A stretch of DNA of 64,000 nt, taken from positions 13,188-77,187 of the IMG/VR virus record IMGVR_UViG_3300047160_010816; one strand, written 5' to 3'. Below the pieces are notes generated by a model. That model was not told the DNA's origin. It worked only from the letters and a program-made list of their open reading frames with translations, and made no database searches. The position numbers and the translations under genes were made by a program. Shown piece by piece: positions 58,436-58,876 of this stretch (positions within the stretch are counted from its first letter, which is position 1; every line of letters begins with the position of its first letter). This DNA comes from a virus (taxonomy: Duplodnaviria > Caudoviricetes).

Positions 58436-58876
58436 CGCCGGCGTCGGAAGGTGTGGACCCGAACGGTCTCATGCCGGCGTAGGCTGTTTTGATACCGTAC
58501 CGAGGCATGCCGGCGTTGGAGGTTGTGGACCCGAGAAGGCATTTGCCGGCGTATGCTGCGCTGAAACCGAACGGTCTCATGCCGGCGTCTGAACCCCTGG
58601 GGACGTGCGAGAATGTGCCGGCGTTACCCCTTCTGAGACCGAGGGAAGATGTGCCGGCGTAATAGCCACTGGAACCGCAATGGGCGATGCCGGCGTAGGT
58701 GGATGTGGACCCGTGATGAGAACTGCCGGCGTAAAGAGCGATGCCCACGGAAACCCCACTGCCGGCGTTCCAGACTGTGAGCCCGAGATTACTGCTGCCG
58801 GCGACTCGACCCATGAAACCGAACGGTCTCATGCCGGCGTATACGTTCTTGCGGCCGTGAATCACCATGCCGGCGT
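58436..58876 (+). ncRNA. TIGR-like array, 12 units
   Basis: Edge repeat every 36 nt from 58436 to 58868. Confidence 0.95.

Follow-up and report, generated by a model that had tools for sequence, protein, structure and literature searches.

Spacers exactly complementary to the consensus loop repeat of their own system in a putative phage TIGR-TasA-like system

Introduction

Why should a guide array carry a spacer that is the exact reverse complement of its own repeat? The question is raised by a phage locus in which four TIGR units, here called anti-loop units, have as their second spacer (spacer B) the reverse complement of the consensus form of the loop repeat, the repeat that separates it from the first (spacer A). 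The discoverers of TIGR-Tas systems speculated that the splitting of the guide keeps arrays from being recognised (PMC12045711), and the natural targets of TIGR-Tas, the origin of the spacers and the avoidance of own arrays are named as open questions in the discussions of PMC12045711 and bioRxiv 10.64898/2026.09.09.750476. By analogy with the target geometry of published Tas proteins, a spacer B equal to the reverse complement of the loop would be the one configuration that cancels the split-guide protection. No description of a spacer of this kind was found in the TIGR literature searched. The four anti-loop units, each with the spacer placed beside a loop that restores mismatches, offer natural material on self versus non-self discrimination by a nuclease-free TasA.

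Results

The Tas protein and the identity of the system

The window, that is, the whole stretch of DNA that was analysed, is 64,000 nucleotides long and corresponds to bases 13188-77187 of a 77,187-bp virus record. It contains one tas gene:

32994..34097, + strand: tas gene (called product P0001, 33207-34097, 296 aa)

The tas ORF 32994-34097 has 155 homologues. Pfam and sequence-only PDB searches failed to identify the protein, and a fold search succeeded: with the AlphaFold2 model (pLDDT 87.6), the best nine Foldseek matches were all TasR or TasH. Alignment of the model by VIA-align gave a Z of 12.2 with TasR 9mty_B (rmsd 2.8, 171 aligned, TasR residues 130-303) and of 11.0-11.6 with TasH (residues 87-290), the next-best folds being those of IS110-family recombinases (Z 7.4-7.9) and Prp31/Nop (Z ~4). 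Residue 1 of the model aligns to residue 130 of TasR and residue 87 of TasH, past their nuclease domains. Since the alignment to both proteins covers the Nop part only, the phage protein is nuclease-free and TasA-like; furthermore, nuclease Pfam matches were absent from Tas, and neither RuvC nor HNH was found ahead of the Nop domain. The fold match to TasR and TasH at Z 11-12, together with the array architecture, upholds the TIGR-Tas identity put forward in an earlier sequence-only reading of this DNA, and the system is, as judged from the model, a TIGR-Tas system with a nuclease-free, TasA-like protein of Nop-type fold.

Homologues conserve an N-terminal helix upstream of 33207 (consensus ...LQxLQRQRxxxLKSRNMQANRL) that is also encoded by the longer ORF, and the annotated start at 33207 (MQANRL...) is probably too late, with the true start lying earlier in the ORF. 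The 5' part of the tas ORF (the 32994-33207 region) contains TIGR-like units.

TIGR-TasA systems, the Tas proteins of which are nuclease-free, have been described with dual-repeat arrays (FpTasA) and with stem-loop arrays (PlTasA, BlTasA and MbTasA) (Faure et al. 2025, PMC12045711; bioRxiv 10.64898/2026.09.09.750476; 10.64898/2026.08.11.744272), and TasA and dead TasR are RNA-guided DNA binders and repressors.

Organisation of the arrays

About 55 TIGR units are present at about 20 sites in the phage. The 53 cleanly parsed + strand units, located between 31.3 and 58.9 kb, consist of the edge repeat TGCCGGCGT, 9 nt, the loop repeat TGAGACCGT and another 9 nt; they stand solo or in arrays, which contain between 3 and 12 units and keep an exact 36-nt phase, with edge and loop repeats alternating and two 9-nt spacers in each 36-nt unit. 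Boxes D and C are found in both repeats, edge and loop having the form TG...CGT with the final T present in 48/53 edges and 34/53 loops. Ten loops retain a CGA ending, seven of them in array 58436. The exact consensus loop occurs in 9/53 parsed units and 12 times in the window. The arrays sit between co-oriented late genes. The arrays and single units referred to below are as follows:

58436..58876, + strand: 12-unit TIGR array in exact 36-nt phase, with a closing edge
49875..50027, + strand: 4-unit TIGR array; the two units after its anti-loop unit have exact consensus loops
50980..51020, + strand: solo stem-loop unit with the stem CGGGCGA / TGCCCG and spacer A TGCCGGCAT at 50988
154..196, - strand: the sole minus-strand unit, the consensus loop of which appears as + strand ACGGTCTCA at 170-178

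The 12-unit array is flanked by a small secreted-looking ORF (57969-58427) and by a gene starting at 58895. Exact consensus loops are absent from it (0/12), and the mean identity of its loops to the consensus, 6.3/9, is the lowest of all arrays, jointly with two 3-unit arrays. The palindromic stem GCCGGC here serves both neighbours, so that units abut at exactly 36 nt; solo units are closed by GGCCGGC/GCCGGCC.

A degenerate unit with an edge-like spacer A had been pointed out earlier, and it was found as the solo unit at 50980-51020, its spacer A TGCCGGCAT having 8/9 identity to the edge repeat, which is marginal; the target predicted for this unit is absent from the window. Another spacer, B TGAGCCCAT at 50847, has two mismatches to the loop, a likeness that is within chance. 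Two near-duplicate whole units were found at 54588-54623 and 57754-57789 (spacer A TTCAAGCAA versus TTCGAGCAA, spacer B AGCAAGTCT versus AGCAAGACG, identical consensus loop). A free-standing HNH gene (52833-53330, 165 aa, HNH_3 domain, E 1.9e-11) lies between two arrays of this locus, the Tas of which is without nuclease.

With the published TIGR-TasA examples the phage system shares a nuclease-free Nop-fold Tas, box D (TG) and box C at both repeats, two 9-nt spacers, the 36-nt phase, the location in a phage and the tandem-spacer geometry, which is here predicted. It differs from them in the hybrid nature of its arrays, which have a palindromic GCCGGC stem and abut at 36 nt like dual-repeat arrays. 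These arrays seem to form a natural bridge between stem-loop and dual-repeat arrays, the two architectures that have been published.

The anti-loop units

The sequence ACGGTCTCA is the exact reverse complement of the consensus loop repeat TGAGACCGT. Matches of ACGGTCTCA on both strands number 16 against 0.52 expected, and a search of the window found five + strand copies of ACGGTCTCA, at 170, 49938, 58463, 58571 and 58823. The copy at 170 belongs to the minus-strand unit, and the four others occupy exactly the spacer-B slot of 36-nt phased units with canonical edges:

49911..49946, + strand: anti-loop unit 1, which is unit 2 within the 4-unit array 49875..50027; edge TGCCGGCGT (49911-49919), spacer A AAGGTACAC (49920-49928), loop TGAAACCGA (49929-49937), spacer B ACGGTCTCA (49938-49946)
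58436..58471, + strand: anti-loop unit 2, which is unit 1 of the 12-unit array; edge CGCCGGCGT, spacer A CGGAAGGTG, loop TGGACCCGA, spacer B ACGGTCTCA (58463-58471)
58544..58579, + strand: anti-loop unit 3, which is unit 4 of the 12-unit array; edge TGCCGGCGT, spacer A ATGCTGCGC, loop TGAAACCGA, spacer B ACGGTCTCA (58571-58579)
58796..58831, + strand: anti-loop unit 4, which is unit 11 of the 12-unit array; edge TGCCGGCGA, spacer A CTCGACCCA, loop TGAAACCGA, spacer B ACGGTCTCA (58823-58831)

Parsing of the 36-nt phase thus reproduces what had first been read from the letters, namely a spacer B equal to the reverse complement of the loop in four copies, each with a different spacer A; among the parsed units, these four A spacers are absent from all those with a consensus loop, again as had been reported. 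The observation is confirmed as real and far beyond chance. Given the composition of the spacers, about 0.0004 anti-loop spacers are expected among 106 spacers, and with four observed a chance origin was ruled out. Furthermore, the likeness of spacers B to ACGGTCTCA is bimodal, with four at 9/9 and the remainder at 5/9 or less, and no general complementarity between loop and spacer B was found in ordinary units (2.4/9). Within the phage, the loop TGAAACCGA is confined to anti-loop units.

The units were also considered as minus-strand or inverted units, which was rejected because an inverted loop should sit 9 nt from both edges and not edge-adjacent; this reading fails in addition on the complements of the A spacers, which have no consistent box D. 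The 12-unit array contains three exact anti-loop spacers despite having the most diverged loops.

Predicted targets

The cuts made by TasR leave 8-nt 3' overhangs and follow a C-5 rule, as reported by the discoverers (PMC12045711). Of both possible arrangements of the target, only that in which one strand reads spacer A and then the reverse complement of spacer B yields 3' overhangs, which with the C-5 rule are exactly 8 nt. This is the geometry assumed in the earlier reading and, by analogy with TasR, would be the sole arrangement that agrees with the published overhangs. Since spacer B is ACGGTCTCA, the sequence sought by an anti-loop guide on this geometry would be spacer A + TGAGACCGT, which corresponds to TIGR-unit DNA carrying a consensus loop.

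A full self-target of the anti-loop guides was not found in the phage's own genome, the best site being 16/18. The whole-genome scan with all 53 guides returned sites with at most two mismatches for three guides only, each in its own unit; these are the three guides with the TGAAACCGA loop, for which a 16/18 match to their own DNA had been noted before. Their sites agree with spacer A at 9/9 and with the loop at 7/9, the mismatches falling at loop positions 4 and 9, and guide 58436 matches its own unit at 14/18. The next-best site, at 15/18, is unit 57754, which has a consensus loop and a spacer A that agrees at 6/9 with that of unit 58796; it was rejected as a target of guide 58796, a 15/18 match being within chance over 48 comparisons.

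The arrays of rival phages had been proposed as targets, and a search of related genomes for the corresponding sequences had been suggested; the four predicted 18-mers (spacer A + consensus loop) gave no exact match in IMG/VR. The pattern GCCGGCGT-N9-TGAGACCGT had 13 matches in IMG/VR and at least 120 in metagenomes, and a looser edge-to-edge pattern had 84 in IMG/VR and at least 120 in GTDB. All of the matches listed are single chance matches or 18-nt coding repeats and were rejected as TIGR arrays. For ACGGTCTCA followed by the edge, three matches were obtained in IMG/VR, none of them within an array. Arrays with these repeats were found neither in IMG/VR or GTDB genomes nor among the metagenome matches listed, and neither the Tas protein nor the array DNA was matched in cultured phages. 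With the best Tas homologue at only ~45% identity, little can be concluded about sister phages from the absence of matching arrays.

Comparison with related phages

Around Tas homologues, 33 loci were scanned, about 25 of which have at least four units. At ~45% Tas identity, the TIGR units of these relatives are of the stem-loop kind, with stems that vary and a spacing of 45-65 nt (loci L017-L042); the loop has the form TG(A/T/C)AACCGA, and box C is CGA in both edge and loop. The box C of the phage is CGT, in contrast to the CGA of all relatives; the change affects both repeats and is concerted, as expected for a symmetric Tas dimer.

The loops of the anti-loop units had been taken as diverged so as to avoid self-binding or hairpin trapping. 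Divergence in a new direction does not hold, since TGAAACCGA is the family-typical loop of the ~25 related phages; as judged from this comparison of sequences, it is TGAGACCGT, together with the CGT box C of edge and loop, that is the derived state in this phage, and TGAAACCGA therefore represents no new divergence.

An anti-loop spacer, defined by at most two mismatches to the reverse complement of the top loop, was found in none of ~280 units from ~25 related phages, and is therefore not a conserved feature of the family. Reuse of a single spacer with a new partner was seen among 282 units of the relatives in three A-only and one B-only cases, in addition to one case of whole-unit reuse. Half-spacer reuse is thus common to these arrays and to those of the phage, where it involves ACGGTCTCA and GGCGTCAAG; the difference is that the spacers reused in the relatives (loci L034, L036 and L030) are ordinary sequences, none of them loop-complementary, whereas ACGGTCTCA is complementary to the loop. 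In locus L034 (8353-11371 of a related phage), 33 stem-loop units form arrays that flank tas on both sides, 31/34 parsed loops are identical (TGAAACCGA), and one A spacer occurs with two different B spacers (GGACGGACG and GGACGGACT).

Loop variants and predicted RNA pairing

All four anti-loop units have non-consensus loops, as had been stated before, but this is without significance (P = 0.46), an exact consensus being found in only 9/53 loops. Two benefits had been ascribed to the variant loops, namely avoidance of self-binding and avoidance of hairpin trapping, and two observations fit this idea of protection. In published ParTasR data, an internal single mismatch, or any tested double mismatch, abolishes activity. 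The loops of the own units differ from the predicted target at one internal and one terminal position in three units and at four positions in unit 58436; under the ParTasR rules the own unit DNA should therefore be a non-target, and by this analogy its protection by the variant loop is plausible, although the occurrence of non-consensus loops is in itself not significant. The binding of TasA may be more tolerant of mismatches than cleavage by TasR. As to trapping, the predicted hairpin between loop and spacer B would have -9.9 kcal/mol with a consensus loop, and has -3.5 kcal/mol with the actual loops of three units and -5.4 kcal/mol with that of the fourth, normal units being at -1.4 ± 1.6 kcal/mol. 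The weakening from -9.9 to -3.5 kcal/mol favours the proposal.

Pairing with the neighbouring unit is also predicted. A perfect 9-bp duplex of -14.0 kcal/mol can form between spacer B of unit 49911 and the loop that comes next in its array, and the three other anti-loop spacers form duplexes of -7.1 to -8.9 kcal/mol with the loops that follow them. In the minimum-free-energy folds of the array transcripts either the next-loop pairing or the own-loop hairpin is used, the loop-B hairpin being that of units 58436 and 58544.

Half-unit modules

A module composed of ordinary sequences is shared by two further units of the phage in a comparable manner:

51126..51152, + strand: ordinary half-unit module, TGAGACCGC / GGCGTCAAG / TGCTGGCGT, recurring identically at 53603-53629

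Units 51108 and 53585, to which the two copies belong, have 31 identical bases (51126-51156 and 53603-53633), a variant edge TGCTGGCGTTT and unrelated A spacers. The same loop and spacer B with a different spacer A are thus also seen with an ordinary spacer, a pair that serves as the control for half-unit exchange, and the different A spacers of the anti-loop units need not mean four chosen targets. The identical modules 51126-51156 and 53603-53633 end two arrays, and possibly represent a conserved terminus of arrays immediately upstream of genes.

Three of the anti-loop units have in common the 18-mer TGAAACCGA+ACGGTCTCA, which is found nowhere else, and the remaining unit, 58436, is akin to unit 58508 in its spacer A (6/9) and its loop (9/9). 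If the four spacers were independent copies of random loops, the probability of all being copies of the consensus would be ~0.001-0.002, as 9/53 loops are exact consensus; that all four are the exact reverse complement of the consensus therefore points to common descent or selection. No off-register repeat-derived guides were found among the phage guides, and this strict register argues against random protospacer sampling of array DNA and for exchange at repeat boundaries.

Discussion

The anti-loop units are most likely tolerated passengers of array rearrangement, and not proven weapons or regulators. In its full form, which we favour tentatively and short of real confidence, this explanation holds that the anti-loop spacer had one origin, was spread by half-unit exchange, and is tolerated since the variant loops prevent self-recognition. 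The founding event would have been the placing of an in-register inverted copy of the consensus loop into one spacer-B slot. Spread to four positions in two arrays would then have followed as loop, spacer B and edge moved together behind different A spacers. If transcribed and processed as their neighbours would be, the anti-loop units would yield tigRNAs that, by analogy with known Tas guides, specify spacer A + TGAGACCGT; a perfect site for these is absent from the phage, and the mismatched own loops would block recognition and weaken the hairpin between loop and spacer B. If the units are inert, they constitute a record of array evolution in which half units (loop + spacer B) moved independently of spacer A, and they still indicate that a repeat can enter a spacer slot as a copy in exact register.

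Several observations go against the passenger reading. With four copies, ACGGTCTCA is the most duplicated spacer in the genome, only one other spacer reaching two, and under neutral duplication it would be a coincidence of about 1 in 50 that the special spacer is also the most duplicated one. All copies are identical at 9/9, without decayed copies, in the array with the most diverged loops, which suggests recent copying or purifying selection. Furthermore, in-register replacement behind unrelated A spacers would have had almost no left flanking homology, and its repeated neutral fixation is not easily explained.

The alternative in general terms is that the anti-loop spacer is a selected device for the recognition of TIGR arrays, be they sister or ancestral alleles or consensus loops of the phage itself, whether in DNA or in the transcript; this is conceivable, though rather unlikely in our estimate. 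With such a device, a class of natural targets would for the first time be known for a TasA system, and nature would offer a demonstration of how split guides tell self from non-self.

In the first version of this alternative, which we consider unlikely, the guide is self-directed and regulatory, the RNPs or the unprocessed transcript recognising the phage's own arrays. At the DNA level, the own units (A 9/9, B 7/9) or, via spacer B alone, the 12 consensus loops would be bound; at the RNA level, the spacer would pair with the loop repeats of the pre-tigRNA. The outcome would be feedback on transcription of arrays and late genes or on guide maturation, and recognition of own loops would in this way set guide and late-gene output. 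Natural guides of a self-targeting or autoregulatory kind exist in CRISPR-Cas, for instance the long form of tracrRNA, by which Cas9 is guided to its own promoter. The likeness lies in a system-encoded guide that is partly complementary to its own locus and could bind it without destruction; the protein family and the guide architecture are different, and the complementarity is here to the repeat and not to a promoter. The anti-loop guides are the only ones with any near-match in the phage genome, and the arrays are situated between co-oriented late genes. If the B half acts alone, spacer A becomes irrelevant, which would explain its variation, and four exact copies with unrelated A spacers fit such a B-only function. 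Published work on other Tas proteins bears on the matter in both directions: TasA and dead TasR repress under RNA guidance, spacer A, to which the own unit DNA corresponds perfectly, is the first to engage, and nicking by TaTasR was seen at a site that agreed with B at 9/9 and with A at 6/9; in contrast, internal and double mismatches abolish activity in the specificity data, and TasR is inactive on RNA substrates. The RNA route is consistent with the predicted duplexes with the next loop, which reach -14 kcal/mol in array 49875 and -7 to -9 kcal/mol elsewhere, but an analogous spacer is absent from ~25 relatives.

The second version, a distinctly improbable one, is that the guides attack arrays in sister or ancestral phages, each being aimed at a competitor's unit in which its own spacer A stands beside a consensus loop. 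The own allele would be shielded by its variant loop in a homing- or exclusion-like manner. It would amount to nuclease-free, RNA-guided competition or drive between guide arrays. The predicted geometry gives exactly a TIGR unit as the target, the own copies differ at positions expected to block recognition, and the four A spacers would mean four targets. Nevertheless, the four 18-mers are without exact match in IMG/VR, no genome with these repeats was found in IMG/VR, in GTDB or among the metagenome matches listed, and the Tas protein has no nuclease domain. The strict register of the repeat-derived guides is odd for acquisition from foreign DNA, and the two loop changes common to three units fit co-inheritance, as the passenger reading would have it, over three separate escapes.

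It is very improbable that the 18-bp quasi-palindrome made up of TGAAACCGA and ACGGTCTCA is not a guide but an operator for a dimeric protein or an RNA hairpin signal for termination or processing: dyad symmetry extends over 7/9 positions, weak helix-turn-helix matches are found in the ORF that ends at array 49875 and the loop-B hairpin is used in the minimum-free-energy folds of units 58436 and 58544, but those matches are below Pfam thresholds, the four units have neither a T-run nor a terminator-like site, and thus no intrinsic terminator, the hairpin is weak (-3.5 to -5.4 kcal/mol), and the exact 36-nt register with canonical edges fits guide units.
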